From a virus (Duplodnaviria > Heunggongvirae > Uroviricota > Caudoviricetes): a stretch of DNA of 36,546 bases. This document shows positions 2,632-14,627 of the stretch, in pieces. Under the pieces are notes generated by a model. That model was not told the origin of the DNA. It saw nothing but the letters and a program-made list of their open reading frames with translations, and made no database searches. The stretch lies in IMG/VR virus record IMGVR_UViG_2648501206_000003. One strand, written 5' to 3'. The number at the start of each line of letters is the position of its first letter. The first letter of the stretch is position 1. A program made the position numbers and the translations under genes.

Positions 2632-2972
2632 ATTGATAACAGAGGGCGTTGCAGCGGGGTTGTCACTTAAGCGTATGGTCAACCTGACAACCCGGTGTCC
2701 TCAACGGGGGAAGGAATAACCCCGCCATACTTACCGCCGCGCCATTTCGCGGATTGCCACAACCGGAAGCGCACGGTCGACGAAAATTTAACGACAGGCT
2801 ATCTATGAACCAGCTACCTCGCCGTGCGCTTTCGCGTTATGGTCTGACTTTTCAGGGAAATATCCTTTCAGTAAACTGTCAGTGCCGGATGCTCACCCGT
2901 GTCCGGCGCACGCACTCCACCTCACCCGTGGAGAACTCCTTAATTACCAACCTTAGCTTCGTTGGTTAGCTA

Positions 2973-3191
2973 TTAACGCGGGTATGTAATCATTCTGGCA
3001 ATGCTTAATGCCGCTGCTTTTTCCAGATTGGTGATATCCTGCTCCAGAGCGGACAGATTTTCAGCCTGCTTAGCCCTGGCTTCATTAGCCCATTTCAGAT
3101 CCTGCGCTGCATTAATTTTCTGGCGCATCCACTCATAAAGTTCATCATCGGTATAGTCTGGCGCGATTATGACGGGTTCTCGTTTCTGCAT
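2973..3191 (-). CDS. ydfC: YdfC-like small protein (72 aa)
   Basis: Track ORF; AGGAA-type RBS upstream of ATG at 3191; length and position (third small gene of the leftward operon, upstream of dicF) match Qin ydfC as recalled. Confidence 0.5.
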   Translation of the reverse strand: MQKREPVIIAPDYTDDELYEWMRQKINAAQDLKWANEARAKQAENLSALEQDITNLEKAAALSIARMITYPR

Positions 3192-3220
3192 ACTGATTCC
3201 TCGCGGTGCTACTTCGCTTA

Positions 3221-3349
3221 TCAGCCGTTAGATTTTGCCGAGCTGGAAAGCGCCTGTTTAAACTCACTGAAGCTGAGAGCTTCTTCGCCTTCGGCAAGGT
3301 CTTCGAAGTATTCTTCGTAAGCCTTTTCCATGATTGTGTCGAAATCCAT
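3221..3349 (-). CDS. ydfB: YdfB-like small acidic protein (42 aa); below the ORF-track length cutoff
   Basis: Hand translation of minus strand: ATG at 3349..3347 preceded by AGGTGAG, giving MDFDTIMEKAYEEYFEDLAEGEEALSFSEFKQALSSSAKSNG, stop at 3223..3221. Tightly packed between the ydfA-like and ydfC-like ORFs. Confidence 0.5.
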   Translation of the reverse strand: MDFDTIMEKAYEEYFEDLAEGEEALSFSEFKQALSSSAKSNG

Positions 3350-3350
3350 A

Positions 3351-3506
3351 TCACTCACCTGAGTTTCTTTCCAGCCAGCGACGGGCACCATTTTCGGTTT
3401 TAAACGTTTTGCTTTTGGTATACGTCATCGCGGTGAACGTGCCGTCCTGGTTGGGAAACACGCCGTACACCAGAGATTCGTTGTTGCCAAGATCGATAGT
3501 ATCCAT
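3351..3506 (-). CDS. ydfA: YdfA-like small protein (51 aa from internal ATG; track ORF extends to 3587)
   Basis: Internal ATG at 3506 with GAGGT 5 nt upstream gives 51 aa (MDTIDLGNNESLVYG...ARRWLERNSGE). The stop lies 1 nt from the ydfB-like ATG. Start choice is uncertain (3506 vs 3587). Confidence 0.45.
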   Translation of the reverse strand: MDTIDLGNNESLVYGVFPNQDGTFTAMTYTKSKTFKTENGARRWLERNSGE

Positions 3507-3688
3507 GCTGACCTCATTTCCCCTTAACGCTGGGGTAGCGGAACAAAAACCTGCTGCATAGTTATTAAAGTTGAACCCTGCCGTCATGTTCTTACGCCTC
3601 GGGCTGGCTACTTAACCCCTGACCACTGCCTGGTAACTCGAAGTATTGCCCTGCATTCTGTGGGGCGGGGTGGGTTGGTATGAAAAGA

Positions 3689-3729
3689 AGGATACCCATA
3701 GGTATTTAAAAAGTAAATACCCATGGGTA
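3689..3729 (-). promoter_or_regulatory. Leftward early promoter (pL-like) with two repressor operator sites
   Basis: 12-bp near-palindromes TACCCATAGGTA (3693..3704) and TACCCATGGGTA (3718..3729). On the minus strand they read -35 TTTACT, 17 bp spacer, -10 TATCCT, with the operators abutting the -35 and overlapping the -10. Same motif as the sites at 4227..4262. Confidence 0.5.
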
Positions 3730-3771
3730 ACTTTTTGCGGTGTCTTAACTGGTGACTAGTTGTTTGGTGAG

Positions 3772-4191
3772 CTATGATGCGTTTTGTGCTTTCTTTTTAC
3801 GGATTTCTTCGTAGATCATATTGTAATACTGTTTTTTCTCTTCAAGAGTTTTTAATAAGTTATCCGCTTCACTTTCTGGCAGTTCGTCTAAGAGATCTAA
3901 AAAAATACGTTGTCGTGGCGTTAGAACCCTTGTTTCATAACTGGAGGCTGTGTTCGTTGATGATGAAACGATACCATCCATCCATCCCCGGGGTAACCCA
4001 AAGGACTCTTCGATAATCTCCACCATATCATCAGCGATCCGTTTTTTTCCCTTTTTCCCCTCTGGGTACAACATTCTTGATACATAAGAAGGCTCGCGCC
4101 CGATCTTTCTGGCCACGTTAACCGCTTTACCATCGCATTTCTCATCACGAATTTTGATGAGTTGCTGTCGTCTAAATTCATATTTGTCCAT
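3772..4191 (-). CDS. Prophage repressor (DicA/RacR-like, 139 aa, no S24 peptidase domain)
   Basis: Track ORF with an N-terminal HTH-like segment (GKAVNVARKIGREPSYVSRML). C-terminal pattern LTPRQRIFLDLLDELPESEADNLL resembles DicA as recalled. Divergent from the Cro-like gene and flanked on both sides by operator repeats. Confidence 0.6.
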   Translation of the reverse strand: MDKYEFRRQQLIKIRDEKCDGKAVNVARKIGREPSYVSRMLYPEGKKGKKRIADDMVEIIEESFGLPRGWMDGIVSSSTNTASSYETRVLTPRQRIFLDLLDELPESEADNLLKTLEEKKQYYNMIYEEIRKKKAQNAS

Positions 4192-4197
4192 AGGTAA

Positions 4198-4266
4198 ATA
4201 ATAGATGCGATTACCGCAAGGTAAACAACCTGTGGGTATTGACTTTTGTTTACCTGTGGGTATTCT
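4198..4266. promoter_or_regulatory. Divergent promoter/operator region: two operators, rightward pR-like promoter, leftward pRM-like promoter giving a near-leaderless repressor mRNA
   Basis: Operators AACCTGTGGGTA (4227..4238) and TACCTGTGGGTA (4251..4262). Plus strand: -35 TTGACT (4239..4244), 16 bp spacer, -10 TATTCT (4261..4266), then AAGGAG (4281..4286) and the ATG at 4292. Minus strand: -10 TATTAT (4203..4198) only 6 nt before the repressor ATG (4191). Confidence 0.5.
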
Positions 4267-4291
4267 TTACTGTGTTTACTAAGGAGTAGCT

Positions 4292-4573
4292 ATGGAAGAA
4301 TTAAGAATATTTCTCAATTCTCTTTCGTCAGATGAACAGCGTATGTTTGCATGCGAGTGTGGTACCAGCATCGGTTATCTAAGAAAGGCATTGAGTAAAG
4401 GTCAAGTGTTAGGGGCATCGTTATGCGTCCTTATTGAGCGAGCCAGTAATGGTGAAGTTACACGTCAGCAACTAAGGCCTTTTGATTGGATGAATATTTG
4501 GCCCGAGCTGGAAGATACCAAAACGTTAACACAACCACTTTCTAGGAGCTTGATTCATGAAAATCAAGCATGA
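4292..4573 (+). CDS. Cro-like HTH regulator (YdaS-family-like)
   Basis: Track ORF with strong RBS AAGGAG; motif GEVTRQQLRPFDW is typical of YdaS/Cro-type proteins; first gene of the rightward operon, divergent from the repressor. Confidence 0.6.
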   Translation: MEELRIFLNSLSSDEQRMFACECGTSIGYLRKALSKGQVLGASLCVLIERASNGEVTRQQLRPFDWMNIWPELEDTKTLTQPLSRSLIHENQA

Positions 4574-4982
4574 ACACATCCGCATGGCGATGAATGCCTG
4601 GGCGCATCCGGACGGTGAAAAAGTTCCGGCAGCTGAAATAACCAGGGCTTATTTTGAACTGGGTATGACGTTCCCAGAACTGTATGACGACAGCCATCCG
4701 GAAGCCCTGGCTCGCAATACCCAGAAAATTTTCCGCTGGGTAGAGAAAGACACCCCTGATGCAGTTGAAAAAATTCAGGCGTTGTTACCAGCGATCGAAA
4801 AGGCAATGCCACCTTTGCTGGTGGCCAGAATGCGCAGCCACAGTTCAGCTTATTTTCGGGAGCTGGTGGAGACGCGGGAGCGACTGGTGAGAGACGCTGA
4901 TGATTTTGTCGCAGTGGCAATCGCCGGTTTCAATCAGATGAACCGTGGTGGCCCGGCAGGAAATGCTGTGGCAGTACATTGA
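4557..4982 (+). CDS. YdaT-like protein (proposed CII functional analogue in Rac-type prophages)
   Basis: Track ORF; N-terminus MKIKHEHI... recalled as YdaT-like; overlaps the Cro-like stop by 17 nt; sits second in the rightward operon as in racR-ydaS-ydaT. Confidence 0.5.
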   Translation: MKIKHEHIRMAMNAWAHPDGEKVPAAEITRAYFELGMTFPELYDDSHPEALARNTQKIFRWVEKDTPDAVEKIQALLPAIEKAMPPLLVARMRSHSSAYFRELVETRERLVRDADDFVAVAIAGFNQMNRGGPAGNAVAVH

Positions 4983-5053
4983 CTGACAATAGCCATATCG
5001 AATCGCTTCCGGCAACTCGTGAGTAAAAAGATTCGGTATCAGAAGAGGTGAGT

Positions 5054-6124
5054 ATGGCTAACGCCTGGCTCAGATTATGGCATGACATGCCAAATGACCC
5101 TAAGTGGCGAACAATTGCCAGGGTGTCAGGGCAGCCAATTGCAACAGTGATGGCAGTGTATATCCACCTCCTGGTGAGCGCGTCACGAAATGTCACGCGA
5201 GGTCACATTGATGTCACGACAGAAGATTTGGCAAGTGCGCTCGACGTGACAGAAGAGGTAATTGATTCAATTTTGCAGACGATGCAGGGGCGGGTACTTG
5301 ATGGTGATTTAATCACTGGATGGGAAAAACGCCAGGTGCTTAAAGAGGACAACGGCAATATTTCGCAAACCGCAAAATCTCCTGCAGAGCGCAAGAGGGC
5401 GCAGCGAGAGAGGGAAAGAAAGCGGGAACAAAATGGCGATTGTCACGGCGCGTCACGAAATGTCACGCACATGTCACGACGAGTCACGACAGATAAAGAT
5501 ACAGATAAAGATACAGATCAAGAAGATCAAAACACTATGGTCCATGGCGTAAAAAACGCCACGAACCAGGCAGGGGATGTTCAGACCGTCAATCTTGGTC
5601 AGCCAGCAGGCACGACACCGGAAGCCGATTCAGCGTATGCGCTGAAAGCCGATTCGGGCGCTGTGCAGCAGGTGATGACCCCAAGGCCGGAGCAATCACA
5701 CCAACTGCAGCAGCCTGAAGCCGATTCCGCCATTCAGCGGGAAGCCGATCGGGTAGTCCCGGAAAACACCGGGCTGTCTGTGGGACGAGTGGATTATCCG
5801 GATGTGTTCGAACAGGTCTGGCGGGAGTACCCGTTGCGTGCCGGAGCAAACCCGAAGAAATCCGCTTTCAGTGCCTGGAAGGCCAGATTACGCGAGGGGG
5901 TGCCACCAGAGGCCATGCTGGATGGCGTGAGGCGTTACGCAAGATACTTGGCGGCTACCGGGAAAACGGGAACGGAATTTGTTCAGCGAGCGACGACGTT
6001 TTTTGGACCGGACCGGAATTTTGAGAACCCCTGGTTGCTCCCGGTAAGCGGCACGAACAACCAGCGTTGTGTGAATCATATTTCTGAACCGGATAACGAA
6101 ATTCCGCCGGGCTTCAGGGGGTAA
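5054..6124 (+). CDS. Replication initiator (lambda O-like / replisome-organiser N-terminal domain); contains the probable origin
   Basis: Track ORF 5048..6124 (GTG); ATG at 5054 follows AGAAGAGG. N-terminus ANAWLRLWHDMPNDPKWRTIA resembles replisome-organiser/DUF1376-type initiators. Iteron arrays lie inside the coding sequence. Confidence 0.55.
   Translation: MANAWLRLWHDMPNDPKWRTIARVSGQPIATVMAVYIHLLVSASRNVTRGHIDVTTEDLASALDVTEEVIDSILQTMQGRVLDGDLITGWEKRQVLKEDNGNISQTAKSPAERKRAQRERERKREQNGDCHGASRNVTHMSRRVTTDKDTDKDTDQEDQNTMVHGVKNATNQAGDVQTVNLGQPAGTTPEADSAYALKADSGAVQQVMTPRPEQSHQLQQPEADSAIQREADRVVPENTGLSVGRVDYPDVFEQVWREYPLRAGANPKKSAFSAWKARLREGVPPEAMLDGVRRYARYLAATGKTGTEFVQRATTFFGPDRNFENPWLLPVSGTNNQRCVNHISEPDNEIPPGFRG
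5182..5218. repeat. Iteron cluster 1: four copies of GTCACG-type repeat at 10-11 bp phasing
   Basis: GTCACG at 5182, 5192, 5213 and GTCACA at 5202; block GCGTCACGAAATGTCACGC repeated again at 5450..5468. Confidence 0.55.
5442..5515. repeat. Iteron cluster 2 (five GTCACG repeats at ~10 bp phasing) plus adjacent AT-rich 12-bp tandem repeat; probable replication origin
   Basis: GTCACG at 5442, 5452, 5462, 5473, 5483; then GATAAAGATACA twice (5492..5515) in an A+T-rich stretch. Arrangement matches lambda ori lying inside gene O. Confidence 0.55.
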
Positions 6125-9925: not shown

Positions 9926-10285
9926 ATGCGTATAGAGTTTGTTTTGCCTTATCCGCCGACGGTGAATACTTACTGGCGACGTCGTGGCAACACATATTTT
10001 GTATCAAAAGTCGGTGAGCGTTATCGCCGTGATGTGGCACTAATTGTTCGCCAGCAGCGGTTGAAATTAAACCTGTCCGGAAGGCTGGCAATAAAAATTA
10101 TTGCAGAGCCACCGGATAAGCGCCGCCGCGACCTGGACAATATCCTGAAGGCACCACTGGATGCGCTGACGCATGCCGGACTTCTCATAGACGACGAGCA
10201 GTTTGATGAAATCAATATTGTGCGCGGACTGCCTGTTCCTGGTGGTCGGCTGGGGATAAAAATCACAGAACTGGAGTGCGCATGA
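9926..10285 (+). CDS. rusA: Holliday junction resolvase RusA
   Basis: 119 aa; the RRRDLDNILKAPLDAL motif and overall pattern match RusA. Confidence 0.8.
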   Translation: MRIEFVLPYPPTVNTYWRRRGNTYFVSKVGERYRRDVALIVRQQRLKLNLSGRLAIKIIAEPPDKRRRDLDNILKAPLDALTHAGLLIDDEQFDEINIVRGLPVPGGRLGIKITELECA

Positions 10286-10971
10286 ATAACCAGTATTTAC
10301 AGTTTGTGCGTGAGCAGCTCATTATCGCCACCGCTGATTTGAGTGGGGCAACAAAAGGTCAGCTTGAAGCCTGGCAGGAGAATGCCATGTTCGATACAGG
10401 GCGTTACAGGCGAAAAAAAATCCGGTACCGCGATGAAGTGACTGGAAAAATGATAACGCGGGATAATCCACCAATCCCGGGAAAGCAATCGCTGGCGAAG
10501 GGGACGTCAATTCCTCTGGTCAGTCCGGTTGAGTTTTCGACATCATCGTGGCGGCGGGCTGTTCTGTCTCTTGAAGAGCATCATAAAGCCTGGTTGTTGT
10601 GGTGTTACGGCGGAAACATTTGCTGGGAGCATCAGATCGCGATAACGCAGTGGGTGTGGAATGAATTTAAAACCCAGTCTGGTACCAGAAAAATTGCAGG
10701 AAAAACGCTGGAGCGTGTGAAGAAGTTGATATGGCTGGCGGCACAGGATGTCAGAGGATGGGTTACCGGGAGTGAGGTCTATCAGCGGCAGGAGCTTGCC
10801 AGACTGTGTGGAGTTAAGCCAGACAACTGGAGCCATAATTATGCGAACTACTGGCGTGAGATGTGCGACATTTTTAAGAATCTCGATACAGAATCCTTGA
10901 TTTCCACCGTGAAAAAGAGATCGCAACAAAAAGCGATCTTTTCACGACGAGATATTGCAAAAGTCAATTAA
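10276..10971 (+). CDS. Putative late-gene antiterminator (Q-like, QuuQ-type)
   Basis: Track ORF overlapping the rusA stop; lies immediately upstream of a promoter and strong terminator (pR'/tR' arrangement) and of the lysis genes. Assigned by position; sequence family not confirmed. Confidence 0.5.
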   Translation: MRMNNQYLQFVREQLIIATADLSGATKGQLEAWQENAMFDTGRYRRKKIRYRDEVTGKMITRDNPPIPGKQSLAKGTSIPLVSPVEFSTSSWRRAVLSLEEHHKAWLLWCYGGNICWEHQIAITQWVWNEFKTQSGTRKIAGKTLERVKKLIWLAAQDVRGWVTGSEVYQRQELARLCGVKPDNWSHNYANYWREMCDIFKNLDTESLISTVKKRSQQKAIFSRRDIAKVN

Positions 10972-10983
10972 ATCGCGTACATT
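10955..10983 (+). promoter_or_regulatory. Candidate late promoter pR' (-35 TTGCAA, 17 bp spacer, -10 TACATT)
   Basis: Sigma70-like hexamers overlapping the end of the Q-like gene, about 70 nt upstream of the tR' hairpin. Confidence 0.4.
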
Positions 10984-11033
10984 TTGTGTAAATCTGATAT
11001 TTTGCCGATTTTGTATGCGATGACAAAGTAAGC

Positions 11034-11062
11034 AAAACCCGCCGATAAGCGGGTTTTTTTGT
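11034..11062 (+). terminator. Intrinsic terminator tR'-like
   Basis: Stem AAACCCGC / GCGGGTTT with a 6-nt loop, followed by a run of seven T (11054..11060). Confidence 0.65.
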
Positions 11063-11068
11063 ATTACA

Positions 11069-11965
11069 ATGCATGCGTTTAATTACTTTTTGGACCATTG
11101 CAACATGAAATCAGATAAGGCAGAAAACTTAGAGAATCCACTCGAACGTAATGATTTTACAATTGATGACTTCCACCATGTTCTTAGGGAGTTTGATAAA
11201 GCTGTTTGTGAAGCCAATGCGGTAAGTCAGGGAGTAGGTGTGCGAATGGCTGAGGCTTATCAAGGTTGGTCAACATATATATTTGCACGAATTTGCATTC
11301 ATGCTTCGATTATGATTTCTAATGTTCCTAAGTCCAGATGGGCTAAGCGAGATTACGATTTCTGGGATTTTGCTTCTATAGCATCTCATGTCAGGGCGAT
11401 CCTTGAAGCTGAACTTCTGTTTATGTATTTGTCTGAAGCACCAGATTCAGAAGAGGCTTGGTCAGCAAAGCTAAATGTTATGCACATGAATGATTGTGTA
11501 AAAAGGATAGAATTATTCACGCAAAGTGATAATACAGAAGCATTAGAGTTTTATAATGAGCAACAGAGTATAATTGCGGAAAGACTCAATAAAAACCCTG
11601 CTTTTTTATCACTTGATAGTGGTACTAGGAAACGTTGCTTGTCAGGCAAGGCTTTAACAATTCCTAATAGAGACGATTTATTGATTAAACTAGGGAAAGA
11701 CCCAAAATCGTTTAAAGTGATGTTTGATTTTCTATCGCATTACACACACATACTCCCTATGTCATATTACAAAATGGAACCGAATGGGAGAGGGACTGGT
11801 TGTTTTAACAAGTTCGATTTTGGATATATAATAATGGGTATGTTGCTATGTACTGAATCTTTGATTAAGTGTACTGAACGGTTGGTGGATATTTTCCCTG
11901 ATGTTAAACGGTTAAGAAAAGGAACTAAATCAAAATTTACATTGGGCCCTAAACCAACAAAATAA
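11069..11965 (+). CDS. Hypothetical protein, 298 aa, A+T-rich cargo gene of unknown function at the Q/lysis junction
   Basis: Track ORF; my manual count of the first 60 nt gives ~35% GC versus ~52% in terL; no recognisable family motif; no obvious SD at either candidate start (11069 or 11105); own terminator-like hairpin downstream. Confidence 0.55.
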   Translation: MHAFNYFLDHCNMKSDKAENLENPLERNDFTIDDFHHVLREFDKAVCEANAVSQGVGVRMAEAYQGWSTYIFARICIHASIMISNVPKSRWAKRDYDFWDFASIASHVRAILEAELLFMYLSEAPDSEEAWSAKLNVMHMNDCVKRIELFTQSDNTEALEFYNEQQSIIAERLNKNPAFLSLDSGTRKRCLSGKALTIPNRDDLLIKLGKDPKSFKVMFDFLSHYTHILPMSYYKMEPNGRGTGCFNKFDFGYIIMGMLLCTESLIKCTERLVDIFPDVKRLRKGTKSKFTLGPKPTK

Positions 11966-12131
11966 AATTAGCTAGAGTTTCTCCACTTCGAAGGCTCCCA
12001 ATGGGGGCTTTTGCATTTCAGGAGCTGGGAATCACTTTCACTTCCCCTTTGGTATAAGGGGGTGAGTCTGAGCTCCATTCCTCTCCTTACATTTTTTTCT
12101 CAGAGAACCCGCAGTCATAAGAGGTGGCTTA

Positions 12132-12518
12132 ATGTCCGATCCTATTTCCGGTACTGGGTTAGCCGGAGGAGTTCTAACGGGAGTCAGTATTTATGGCCTG
12201 TTTACAGGTACGGATTATGGTGTTGTATTTGGCGCATTTGCAGGAGCTGTTTTCTACATAGCGACAACTGCAGATCTGACGGCAACGCGCCGACTGGCAT
12301 ATTTCATAGTGTCATATATCGCTGGGGTTTTGTGTTCTGGGTTAGTTGGTTCCAAACTGGCGAATTTGACCGGATACAGTGATAAACCTCTGGATGCTAT
12401 TGGTGCCGTAATCGTCTCTGCTTTAGCCGTTAAAATCCTGACGTTTCTGAATAACCAGGATATCGGTTCGCTGGTGGCGCTCATAACGCGCCGGGGAGGT
12501 TCAGGTGGTACAAAATGA
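12132..12518 (+). CDS. Putative holin (128 aa, multi-pass membrane protein)
   Basis: Gly/Ala-rich hydrophobic segments; first gene of the lysis cassette upstream of the endolysin. Confidence 0.5.
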   Translation: MSDPISGTGLAGGVLTGVSIYGLFTGTDYGVVFGAFAGAVFYIATTADLTATRRLAYFIVSYIAGVLCSGLVGSKLANLTGYSDKPLDAIGAVIVSALAVKILTFLNNQDIGSLVALITRRGGSGGTK

Positions 12519-12786
12519 CCTGTCGGCAACTTTTAATGCATTGCTTTGTGCTGGGGTAGTGTTAACCCTGATGTTTTACCGTCGCGGCGACTCGCGACAT
12601 CGGCCGTGGATATCTCGTTTAGCGTGGCTGCTTACGGTCATGTACAGTGCCATTCCGCTGGCGTATCTGTGCGGTATTTACCCGTACTCATCATGGGGCA
12701 CTATCGGGGCCAACATTATTTTCCTCTCTGTGCTGGTAGCCGTCAGAGGCAACGTGGCACGTCTGGTTGATCATCTGAGGCGCTAA
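12505..12786 (+). CDS. Second small membrane protein of the lysis cassette (holin/antiholin-like, 93 aa)
   Basis: GTG start overlapping the previous stop; 2-3 predicted TM segments; stop overlaps the endolysin start. Confidence 0.45.
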   Translation: MVQNDLSATFNALLCAGVVLTLMFYRRGDSRHRPWISRLAWLLTVMYSAIPLAYLCGIYPYSSWGTIGANIIFLSVLVAVRGNVARLVDHLRR

Positions 12787-13400
12787 TGAACCAATCACAA
12801 TTTCAGCAGGCGGCTGGTATCAGCGCCGGGCTTTCTGCGCGCTGGTTTCCGCACATTGATGCGGCATTGAAAGAGTTTGGAATCACAGCAGTTAACGATC
12901 AGGCCATGTTCATTGCACAAGTTGGGCACGAATCGGCCGGTTTTACCTCGCTGGTGGAGAGCTTTAACTATTCGGTAGAGGGGCTGAAGAAAACCTTTGG
13001 TAAACGCCTGACTCCGTATCAGTGTGAAATGTTGGGACGTATCGATGGTAGGCAGATAGCGCACCAGCAGCAAATAGCCAATTTGGTTTACGGTAACCGC
13101 TTGGGGAATAACTGCCAAGGGGATGGCTGGAAATATCGTGGTCGTGGCCTGCTTCAAATCACCGGCCGGGAGAACTACGCCAAATGCGGTACGGCGCTGA
13201 AGCTTGATCTAATCGGTACACCAGAGTTGCTGACGCAGGAGAAGCATGCTGCCCGTTCTGCTGCTTGGTTTTTCACGTTACGTGGTTGTCTCCTTTACTC
13301 GGGAGAGCTGGAGCACGTCACGCAGATTATTAATGGCGGGCAGAACGGCATTAAAGACCGTCGTGAACGTTACGCCAAAGCTAAAGCCGCACTGGTGTGA
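12786..13400 (+). CDS. Endolysin, glycoside hydrolase family 19 (chitinase-like lysozyme)
   Basis: 204 aa; motif FIAQVGHESAGFTSLVESFNYS typical of GH19 phage endolysins. Confidence 0.75.
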   Translation: MNQSQFQQAAGISAGLSARWFPHIDAALKEFGITAVNDQAMFIAQVGHESAGFTSLVESFNYSVEGLKKTFGKRLTPYQCEMLGRIDGRQIAHQQQIANLVYGNRLGNNCQGDGWKYRGRGLLQITGRENYAKCGTALKLDLIGTPELLTQEKHAARSAAWFFTLRGCLLYSGELEHVTQIINGGQNGIKDRRERYAKAKAALV

Positions 13401-14087: not shown

Positions 14088-14627
14088 TTAGAAACTGCGT
14101 GGAGCTGTGGAAAGAATGGATGCCAGTTCTTCCTTTGATAAATCCCAGCTTCGATTTACAGCGTCAATTTTCTTAAACTCATCAAGCATTGCGTTATAGA
14201 GATGTTCTGTACGTGAATGAGTATTGGCAATGGGCTGTTTCTGTTCGGGGAAGCGATCAATTTTCTGATACGCCTCAATGATACTGAAGTAATCGCATTC
14301 ATTATTACCGTCGAAACCTGGGAGCTGAATTTCCCCATCATGTATTTTTAGATGATGGTCACGGACTAATTCTTTTTGCTCGTCATCACTAAGTTTCCTG
14401 AAAGCATTGGAAAGTCCGCGGTACATATTCAATACAGCAGTAACAAAATCACGATCTTCTTTACTTGGTTCATCAACATCCAAATGTGAATATTCGGCCT
14501 TCATAACCCAATCATTACCAGATGACACAGCATATTTTACAAGCTGTGGATCAATATCAGTTTCGATACCTAGGTGGATGGCAATGTCACATAACAAAAT
14601 GGTATTGATTTTATCCTTAATATCCAT
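14088..14627 (-). CDS. YfbU-family (UPF0304-like) protein, 179 aa; antisense A+T-rich cargo gene between lysis and packaging modules
   Basis: Track ORF on the opposite strand to all flanking phage genes; segments VTAVLNMYRGLSNAFRKL, GFDGNNECDYFSIIEAY and THSRTEHLYNAML parallel E. coli YfbU as recalled; own terminator. Confidence 0.5.
   Translation of the reverse strand: MDIKDKINTILLCDIAIHLGIETDIDPQLVKYAVSSGNDWVMKAEYSHLDVDEPSKEDRDFVTAVLNMYRGLSNAFRKLSDDEQKELVRDHHLKIHDGEIQLPGFDGNNECDYFSIIEAYQKIDRFPEQKQPIANTHSRTEHLYNAMLDEFKKIDAVNRSWDLSKEELASILSTAPRSF

Follow-up and report, generated by a model that had tools for sequence, protein, structure and literature searches.

The space between the antiterminator gene Q and the lysis genes of lambdoid phages is best known for Shiga toxin, whose genes (stxAB) are carried there by the Stx phages. 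Extra genes of lambdoid phages that bring their own promoter and terminator and deviate in base composition are said to have been described as morons by Hendrix and co-workers, and a moron in the Stx slot is already a known kind of element. Here we describe a gene in this slot in the IMG/VR virus record IMGVR_UViG_2648501206_000003, a stretch of 36,546 nucleotides (nt) which is referred to below as the window. The window is an Escherichia coli prophage of the Rac-like lambdoid type, in which a Pfam scan gave the local order DUF968, RusA, Q, cargo gene, two holins and GH19 endolysin. The cargo gene belongs to DUF5677, a family that is catalogued but uncharacterised. With moderate confidence, we read the feature as a moron, that is, a self-contained one-gene unit exchanged horizontally, and its product as a phage-carried conflict protein of the exclusion or abortive-infection type.

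The locus shares its slot and its transcriptional logic with stxAB and other Q–lysis cargo, and relatives with about 88–92% identical Q, promoter and terminator hold a methyltransferase, tRNAs and an esterase there. Unlike the AB5 toxins, which it does not resemble, the DUF5677 product consists of one cytoplasmic protein that lacks a signal peptide, and its gene appears to have a promoter-like element and terminator of its own. As with the lambdoid morons, the unit is patchily distributed, deviant in composition and bracketed by regulatory signals; unlike theirs, its promoter is represented only by a −10-like hexamer with no clear −35.

Cargo of other mobile elements offers further comparisons. 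The gpA–portal interval of P2-like phages is a defence hotspot, in which P2 itself carries the exclusion genes old and tin (PMC9122126). A DUF5677 family member occupies this hotspot beside HicAB in Burkholderia, whereas the window's phage is lambdoid and not P2-like; in the supplementary files of PMC9122126, as far as these were accessible, DUF5677 was not found. The lactococcal systems Rugutis and Kamadhenu (PMC11381338) and the Tai morons (PMC11364771) count among the single-gene defence proteins of unknown fold on prophages or plasmids and are, like the DUF5677 gene, one-gene mobile cargo. The DUF5677 family differs from them in that no protective phenotype is on record for it.

The DUF5677 gene as cargo between Q and the lysis genes

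The gene lies at 11105..11965 on the plus strand and encodes 286 amino acids (aa). A preliminary description of the window, made from the sequence alone, had begun the frame at an alternative start (11069..11965, 298 aa). The frame is present, but 286 aa is the likelier product, because the start at 11105 in the RefSeq/PGAP annotation agrees with the N-termini of 43 homologues. The cargo unit extends over 11034..12076 (no strand assigned), from a terminator that forms the left joint to the point before right-hand homology resumes at 12077, and the list of open reading frames (ORFs) contains no second ORF within it. On its left is the Q gene (10276..10971, plus strand, 231 aa; Pfam PF06323, 8.8e-87; phrog_304, 5e-107), and on its right the lysis cassette (12132..13400, plus strand), in which Pfam identifies a holin (PF16931), a second holin (PF05449) and the GH19 endolysin. 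The earlier outline of Q, promoter, terminator, cargo and lysis genes is borne out by the sequence.

The base composition of the gene departs strongly from that of its surroundings. Its G+C content (GC) is 36.7%, and 30% at third codon positions (GC3), compared with 48–55% GC for Q, RusA, the holins and the GH19 endolysin. Among all 897-nt segments of the 36.5-kb sequence (mean 51.3%, standard deviation 4.8%) the DUF5677 gene has the lowest GC, and it deviates clearly from a phage backbone of about 50%. Low GC relative to the backbone was also found in all enterobacterial homologues.

The gene is rare. It is present in 17 of 5,426 complete E. coli genomes, always on the chromosome and with all copies at least 99.7% identical, and among the carrier strains are several avian-pathogenic or animal isolates. 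Parts of the Q or holin region, without the DUF5677 gene, are found in about 1,500 further genomes. The lysis allele of the window (at least 99% identical) is restricted to the same 17 genomes, while 225 other genomes contain lysis cassettes of the same type, nearly all 80–90% identical, without the gene. A tblastn search of 50,697 deposited phage genomes returned no homologue. The gene is thus present in some close relatives and absent from others, between genes that are otherwise neighbours. The preliminary description had called it A+T-rich and foreign, and both the computed composition and the patchy distribution agree; the gene is neither a conserved late gene of the backbone nor backbone-like in composition, the two findings that had been named in advance as speaking against such an origin.

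Comparison with relatives locates the two joints. Homology to relatives that share the window's Q ends at about 11060–11064, at the end of the terminator, and homology to relatives that share its holin type begins at 12077. Among the relatives that were compared, the slot is filled differently: in L003 with a small TrmB-family regulator, a DNA methyltransferase, three tRNAs and a SASA esterase, which is a layout of the Stx-phage type; in L004 with IraM; in L006 with an insertion sequence (IS) element; and in L005 with two hypothetical proteins unrelated to the DUF5677 gene. The 264-aa protein of L005, an alternative occupant of the slot, proved unrelated to the DUF5677 gene. The proposal that this is the Stx insertion slot is supported by this comparison, since relatives with the same Q and terminator carry cargo of the Stx-phage type in it.

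The left joint is informative in another respect. The window and locus L038, whose Q is of a different family, share the terminator hairpin (AAACCCGCC...GCGGG), the T-run and the leader (ATTACAATGCATGCG.TTAATTA), and homology between the two starts at the terminator hairpin. Relatives that have the window's Q type without the gene have a different hairpin sequence. Because the hairpin and leader are shared despite a different Q, and the hairpin differs where Q is the same, the terminator looks like a recombination joint, with the leader apparently moving together with the gene.

The position of the gene is conserved over a much wider range. About 25 lambdoid prophages, with at least three different Q families between them, hold a homologue of 45–85% identity in this slot. 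A PF06530-type Q lies upstream in the Citrobacter and Yersinia loci, a lambda-type Q (PF03589) in the Pantoea locus, and in the Enterobacter locus an unassigned 201-aa Q-like protein followed by a promoter-like element and terminator of its own. Over these loci and the metagenome loci the Q genes are of the PF06323, PF06530, PF03589 and unassigned 201-aa types, and the holins belong to several families. A scan of IMG/VR, with neighbours assigned by comparison with reference proteins from annotated loci, gave 24 loci. Upstream sequence is available for 23 of them, and in 20 of these the gene immediately preceding is a Q homologue; lysis genes lie downstream in most loci. An intrinsic terminator separates Q from the gene in 15 of 17 lambdoid loci, and in 13 of these the start codon follows 35–97 nt past the T-run. 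What makes the locus worth attention is that the same slot repeatedly hosts one uncharacterised family, across lambdoid phages with at least three types of Q and within its own frame of terminator, leader and terminator.

Additional genes can accompany the DUF5677 gene in the slot. In one IMG/VR contig (L042) an arsenic-resistance operon (2784–5661; arsR, arsB, arsC and an arsH-like FMN-reductase gene) lies between Q and the DUF5677 gene, which shows that the Q–lysis slot collects quite different cargo. In a metagenome locus HicAB lies between the DUF5677 gene and the holin. HicAB pairs adjoin the DUF5677 gene both in a P2-like phage background and in an unrelated lambdoid one (L024:5868-6508 and L032:7181-7813, the latter the same as L056).

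Family membership and predicted structure

The preliminary description had recognised no family motif in the protein, a statement that does not hold. The protein matches Pfam DUF5677 (PF18928 / IPR043733) over residues 87–222 of the 286-aa form with E = 2e-5 and 25.1 bits, just under the PF18928 gathering threshold of 27.1 bits, and RefSeq names it DUF5677. No match to it was obtained in PHROGs or NCBIfam. A first search gave 47 homologues of about 280 aa, 43–85% identical, in Enterobacterales, Vibrio, Pseudomonas and Burkholderia. A profile of 44 close relatives then reached 1,195 clusters at 50% identity (630 with E ≤ 1e-10); PF18928 is matched by 93 of 111 cluster representatives, the best at 7.7e-18. 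In a second search, nearly all hits below 35% identity bear a precomputed PF18928 annotation. Because of this transitive homology to proteins that pass PF18928, membership of DUF5677 is judged secure even though the protein's own score is sub-threshold.

The family evolves as a functional protein. Against the Enterobacter copy, the proportion of nonsynonymous differences (pN) is 0.11, the proportion of synonymous differences (pS) is saturated at 0.75, and the ratio of the nonsynonymous to the synonymous substitution rate (dN/dS) is about 0.03. Over deeper divergence pN ranges from 0.11 to 0.36, again with saturated pS. Saturated pS together with a pN of 0.11 means that a real protein is under strong purifying selection.

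An AlphaFold model built from a 44-sequence alignment is all-helical, with a predicted local distance difference test score (pLDDT) of 89 and a predicted template-modelling score (pTM) of 0.86. Structure prediction with a fold search was among the checks proposed in the preliminary description, and Foldseek against PDB and BFVD, a database of viral predicted structures, gave nothing below E = 0.1. A sequence profile run against PDB chains likewise gave no match. Rugutis also has a confident predicted structure with no PDB relative (PMC11381338). Comparison of the N- and C-terminal halves of the family profile by hhalign, made for an internal duplication or a HEPN dyad, gave a probability of only 0.13, and this idea was dropped.

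Ten positions are near-invariant across the wide family: S41, D88, R97, E101, D130, R134, S211, H215, R229 and G232. The polar set within them (D88, R97, E101, D130, R134, S211, H215 and R229-G-x-G) suggests a ligand-binding or catalytic pocket, though neither fold nor motif assigns it an activity. The subfamily of the window differs from the wider Pfam family in having K122 and N129 instead of R122 and H129, and in the addition of a conserved basic C-terminal tail, RKGxKSKFxxGPK. Fused members of the family carry a C-terminal RES domain (PF08808, 5.2e-14), an N-terminal MtlR-like domain, DUF1353 or a SEC-C motif. The SEC-C motif is C-terminal in the one member that has it. Rugutis, too, has a SEC-C motif; a tblastn search of plasmids with the DUF5677 member gave no match in Lactococcus.

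Regulatory signals around the gene

A late-promoter-like element read from the sequence, TTGCAA-17-TACATT, overlaps the stop codon of Q at 10955..10983 on the plus strand (TTGCAA at 10955-10960, a 17-nt spacer, and TACATT at 10978-10983). It agrees with the consensus at 8 of 12 positions, which is below the threshold of our consensus scan, where it is consequently not listed. Across five relatives TTGCAA is invariant and the −10 retains the form TAnnTT. The element is where it had been placed previously; its match to consensus is modest, and it would act as pR′. It is followed by the tR′-like intrinsic terminator at 11034..11062 (plus strand), which coincides with the left joint. The strength attributed to this terminator was confirmed: it has 9 pairs and a T-run, a folding energy of −15.1 kcal/mol (z = −4.0), and compensatory changes in its stem among relatives.

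The segment from the promoter-like element to the terminator (10967..11065, plus strand) gave full-length Rfam matches to isrJ (25.7 bits, E = 0.036), isrK and several attenuator leaders, all sub-threshold; nothing in Rfam reached the gathering score for this segment. It is consistent with a short terminated transcript like the lambda 6S RNA.

Downstream of the terminator, a −10-like hexamer, TACAAT, lies at 11065..11070 (plus strand), 34 nt before the ATG, and is a candidate promoter of the cargo gene. A −10-like hexamer with at least 5 of 6 matches was found between terminator and start codon in 10 of 12 loci, compared with 4.9 ± 1.6 in shuffled sequences (P about 0.002). It lies 23–37 nt from the ATG in 9 loci, including one in which the terminator is 184 nt further upstream.

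Behind the gene, a terminator-like hairpin occupies 11989..12013 on the plus strand (11-bp stem, −15 kcal/mol, z = −3.7). The preliminary description had reported a hairpin of the gene's own at 11992..12016; there is indeed one, shifted by these few positions and with a poor U-tail. In about 11 of 14 lambdoid loci the gene is followed by a hairpin and a run of U; many of these hairpins are of the 'AAGGCU...' type found in the window, and the form is canonical in most homologous loci.

The arrangement of these signals bears on when the gene would be expressed. Polymerase modified by Q reads through terminators, so a dedicated 3′ terminator would make sense only where unmodified polymerase transcribes the gene, and this points to expression in lysogens. 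Both the −10-like hexamer and the 3′ terminator move together with the gene, which suggests that it is probably not under the late promoter alone and is expressed in the lysogen too. Expression from the late promoter on induction, as previously proposed, agrees with the layout of the slot; the part of that proposal which made the late promoter the sole control appears unlikely. In order, the unit comprises the hairpin of the upstream terminator, a short leader in which the −10-like hexamer lies, the DUF5677 gene and the 3′ terminator-like hairpin. In the lysogen, low-level expression would come either from a weak promoter belonging to the gene or from polymerase that passes the upstream terminator, and the 3′ terminator of the unit would shield the lysis genes from cargo transcription. 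After induction, it would be strongly transcribed by Q-modified polymerase. Its product, a soluble, cytoplasmic, all-helical DUF5677 protein, would act against other phages or mobile elements.

Two further observations concern these signals. A near-consensus sigma-70 promoter-like site (TTAACA-16-TATAAT, 11 of 12 positions) lies at 11805..11832 on the plus strand, inside the 3′ part of the DUF5677 gene and directed towards the lysis genes. It may simply reflect the A+T-rich codons; were it active, the holins would be protected from it by the hairpin at 11989..12013. In distant lambdoid copies (45–48% identical; L047:5960-6000, L048, L055 and L051:5956-6000) the leader contains a hairpin between the −10-like hexamer and the ATG, in which CCCC(C/T) pairs with a GGGGG Shine-Dalgarno-like run. 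The arrangement resembles sequestration of the ribosome-binding site at the level of translation, and the leader of the window does not have it.

Genomic context and competing readings

Members of DUF5677 outside the lambdoid slot are found repeatedly among defence genes. A P2-like Burkholderia prophage carries a copy within the gpA–portal hotspot, flanked by HicAB on one side and the portal gene on the other, and in IMG/VR locus L052 a gpA replication gene is nearby. The Pseudomonas chlororaphis copy begins 33 nt downstream of a serine recombinase and adjoins a pair of genes similar to PD-Lambda-3_B and PDC-M34A. The Vibrio copy comes after a gene for a 640-aa protein that combines a restriction-endonuclease-like (DUF4365) domain with TPR repeats. 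In qualitative terms, the P2 hotspot, the Pseudomonas island and the Vibrio neighbour place the family among defence genes and hotspots. An independent study found DUF5677 to be strongly enriched beside defence-marking serine recombinases (corrected P = 2e-92, n = 25).

Plasmid copies adjoin ParAB, a RelE-type toxin–antitoxin pair with an integrase, or IS elements; the RelE-type pair is on a Photobacterium plasmid, and a Zeta toxin is the neighbour in Pseudomonas. The family is also present in environmental Vibrio, Shewanella, Pseudomonas, Burkholderia and Rhizobium. Orphan chromosomal copies occur in Pseudomonas, in Chromobacterium next to glmS, and in Rhizobium. Chromosomal islets that lack neighbouring phage genes thus also contain the family, which speaks for an advantage to the cell itself. 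The Chromobacterium copy encodes a 407-aa protein and lies about 320 nt from glmS (L057:6001-7224). That side of glmS is the insertion side of Tn7-type elements; no transposon genes were seen in the 13 kb of sequence covered at this locus.

From this context we infer a defence role for the gene. A conflict function is the likeliest one because of the occurrence in defence hotspots and islands, the fusions to RES and MtlR-like domains, the occurrence away from phages and the association with serine recombinases. The payload had earlier been suggested to serve anti-phage defence or virulence, and of these it is defence that the genomic context favours. If the gene does serve defence, the Q–lysis slot would be a defence hotspot of lambdoid prophages comparable to those of P2 and P4. 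With about 1,200 clusters, purifying selection, an association with defence islands and no solved structural relative, DUF5677 is a concrete and inexpensive candidate for a new phage-conflict activity.

Several results weigh against the conflict reading. The protein had no match in PADLOC-DB v2.0.0 even at E up to 1, a check that had been suggested at the outset. A distant DUF5677 ORF from Bacillota, expressed constitutively in E. faecalis and challenged with six phages, is outside the five reported as protective, and no experiment shows defence by any DUF5677 protein. No biochemical activity is assignable, no solved or viral structure resembles the model, and the subfamily has K122 and N129 at the positions of R122 and H129. 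The P-value for the −10-like hexamer overstates the evidence because the loci compared are related to one another and so are not independent, and no convincing −35 was found for the candidate promoter. The 3′ hairpin of the window, with its poor U-tail, was not classed as a terminator by a simple scan. Finally, a position directly behind the late promoter would suit a late-lytic function equally well. Stray, weak PADLOC matches were obtained among the 111 representatives (PDC-S12 in one; E2-type, including E1-E2, in one) and were dismissed as noise; when 26 members, most of them longer or fused, were scanned individually, these matches were not located.

A more far-reaching form of the conflict reading, which we offer tentatively and regard as rather doubtful, is that the DUF5677 subfamily constitutes a new system, encoded by a single gene and directed by phage against phage or satellite, whose fold resembles no solved structure and which is wired into the lambdoid late switch. 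It would be expressed as a trickle in the lysogen, between two terminators, and at full strength through Q on induction, so as to guard the lysogen and to clear competitors during the burst.

The late-lytic position leads to an alternative that is unlikely, though the likeliest of the rivals, namely a helper of the phage in its late phase. Such a protein would be made only after Q acts; its task would be to counter host defences that recognise late proteins, to keep satellites in check, or to remodel the host while assembly and lysis proceed. The gene is the first after Q, promoter and terminator in about 25 lambdoid loci, and other cargo of the slot, such as the DNA methyltransferase and tRNAs, serves the lytic phase. 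Against a late helper, the family is common outside phages, in chromosomal islets and on plasmids without phage late genes, and a copy sits in the P2 gpA–portal hotspot, where P2 has old and tin. Moreover, the 3′ terminator and −10-like element would be purposeless if only Q-modified polymerase transcribed the gene, and the gene is absent from every one of the deposited phage genomes searched.

Strong purifying selection over deep divergence and the large size of the wider family argue against a selfish or addiction-type passenger, i.e. a toxic or neutral gene that is kept since the slot tolerates insertions and that benefits neither phage nor host. This reading, which we think quite improbable, draws on the unrelated cargo that the slot accepts (the arsenic operon of L042, HicAB in L032/L056, IS elements, the methyltransferase) and on the frequency of toxin–antitoxin modules as neighbours. 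A type II toxin–antitoxin system would call for a conserved adjacent partner; none was found, as the neighbours differ in every context, and no antitoxin-like gene is conserved beside the DUF5677 gene.

The defence reading also has a biochemical version, in which the protein is a HEPN-type RNase toxin. The HEPN motif is Rx4-6H, often with Ex3[KR] upstream, and MtlR is a member of the HEPN superfamily (PMC3710099). The wider DUF5677 family resembles these motifs, with E118-x3-R122 and R122-x6-H129 (R and H both in 65% of representatives), and one member has an MtlR-like N-terminal domain. At the motif positions, in contrast, the protein of the window carries K122 and N129, and A118 replaces the E118 found in most of the family. 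The modelled motif lies in the middle of a helix, not at a helix end, Foldseek finds nothing, and the Pfam scan finds only DUF5677. The MtlR/HEPN match of the fused relative (P0146) covers residues 58–132 of its N-terminal extension, outside the DUF5677 domain, and was set aside. This version is very unlikely.

A Stx-like lysogenic-conversion factor that serves host fitness or virulence and is released or acts on induction is the most improbable of these readings: the gene does lie in the Stx slot and several carriers are avian-pathogenic or animal isolates, but the protein has neither a signal peptide nor a membrane helix (hydrophilic N-terminus, highest 19-residue hydropathy 1.31, grand average of hydropathy −0.32), structure comparison matched no toxin fold, and homologues occur in free-living marine, soil and lichen-associated bacteria, which leaves the virulence half of the earlier proposal unsupported.

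The window contains a second A+T-rich cargo gene apart from the DUF5677 unit, at 14088..14627 on the minus strand (GC 38.9%, GC3 34%), between the lysis cassette and the HNH and terminase genes. Its product is a 179-aa YfbU-family protein (PF03887, 4.7e-12; phrog_6084, 1e-82). Kamadhenu is a 180-aa YfbU-domain protein and a validated single-gene antiphage system in Lactococcus (PMC11381338), and the Tai defence morons of lambdoid phages sit upstream of the packaging module (PMC11364771). In relative L005 the slot of the YfbU gene is occupied by a DUF6173 gene.

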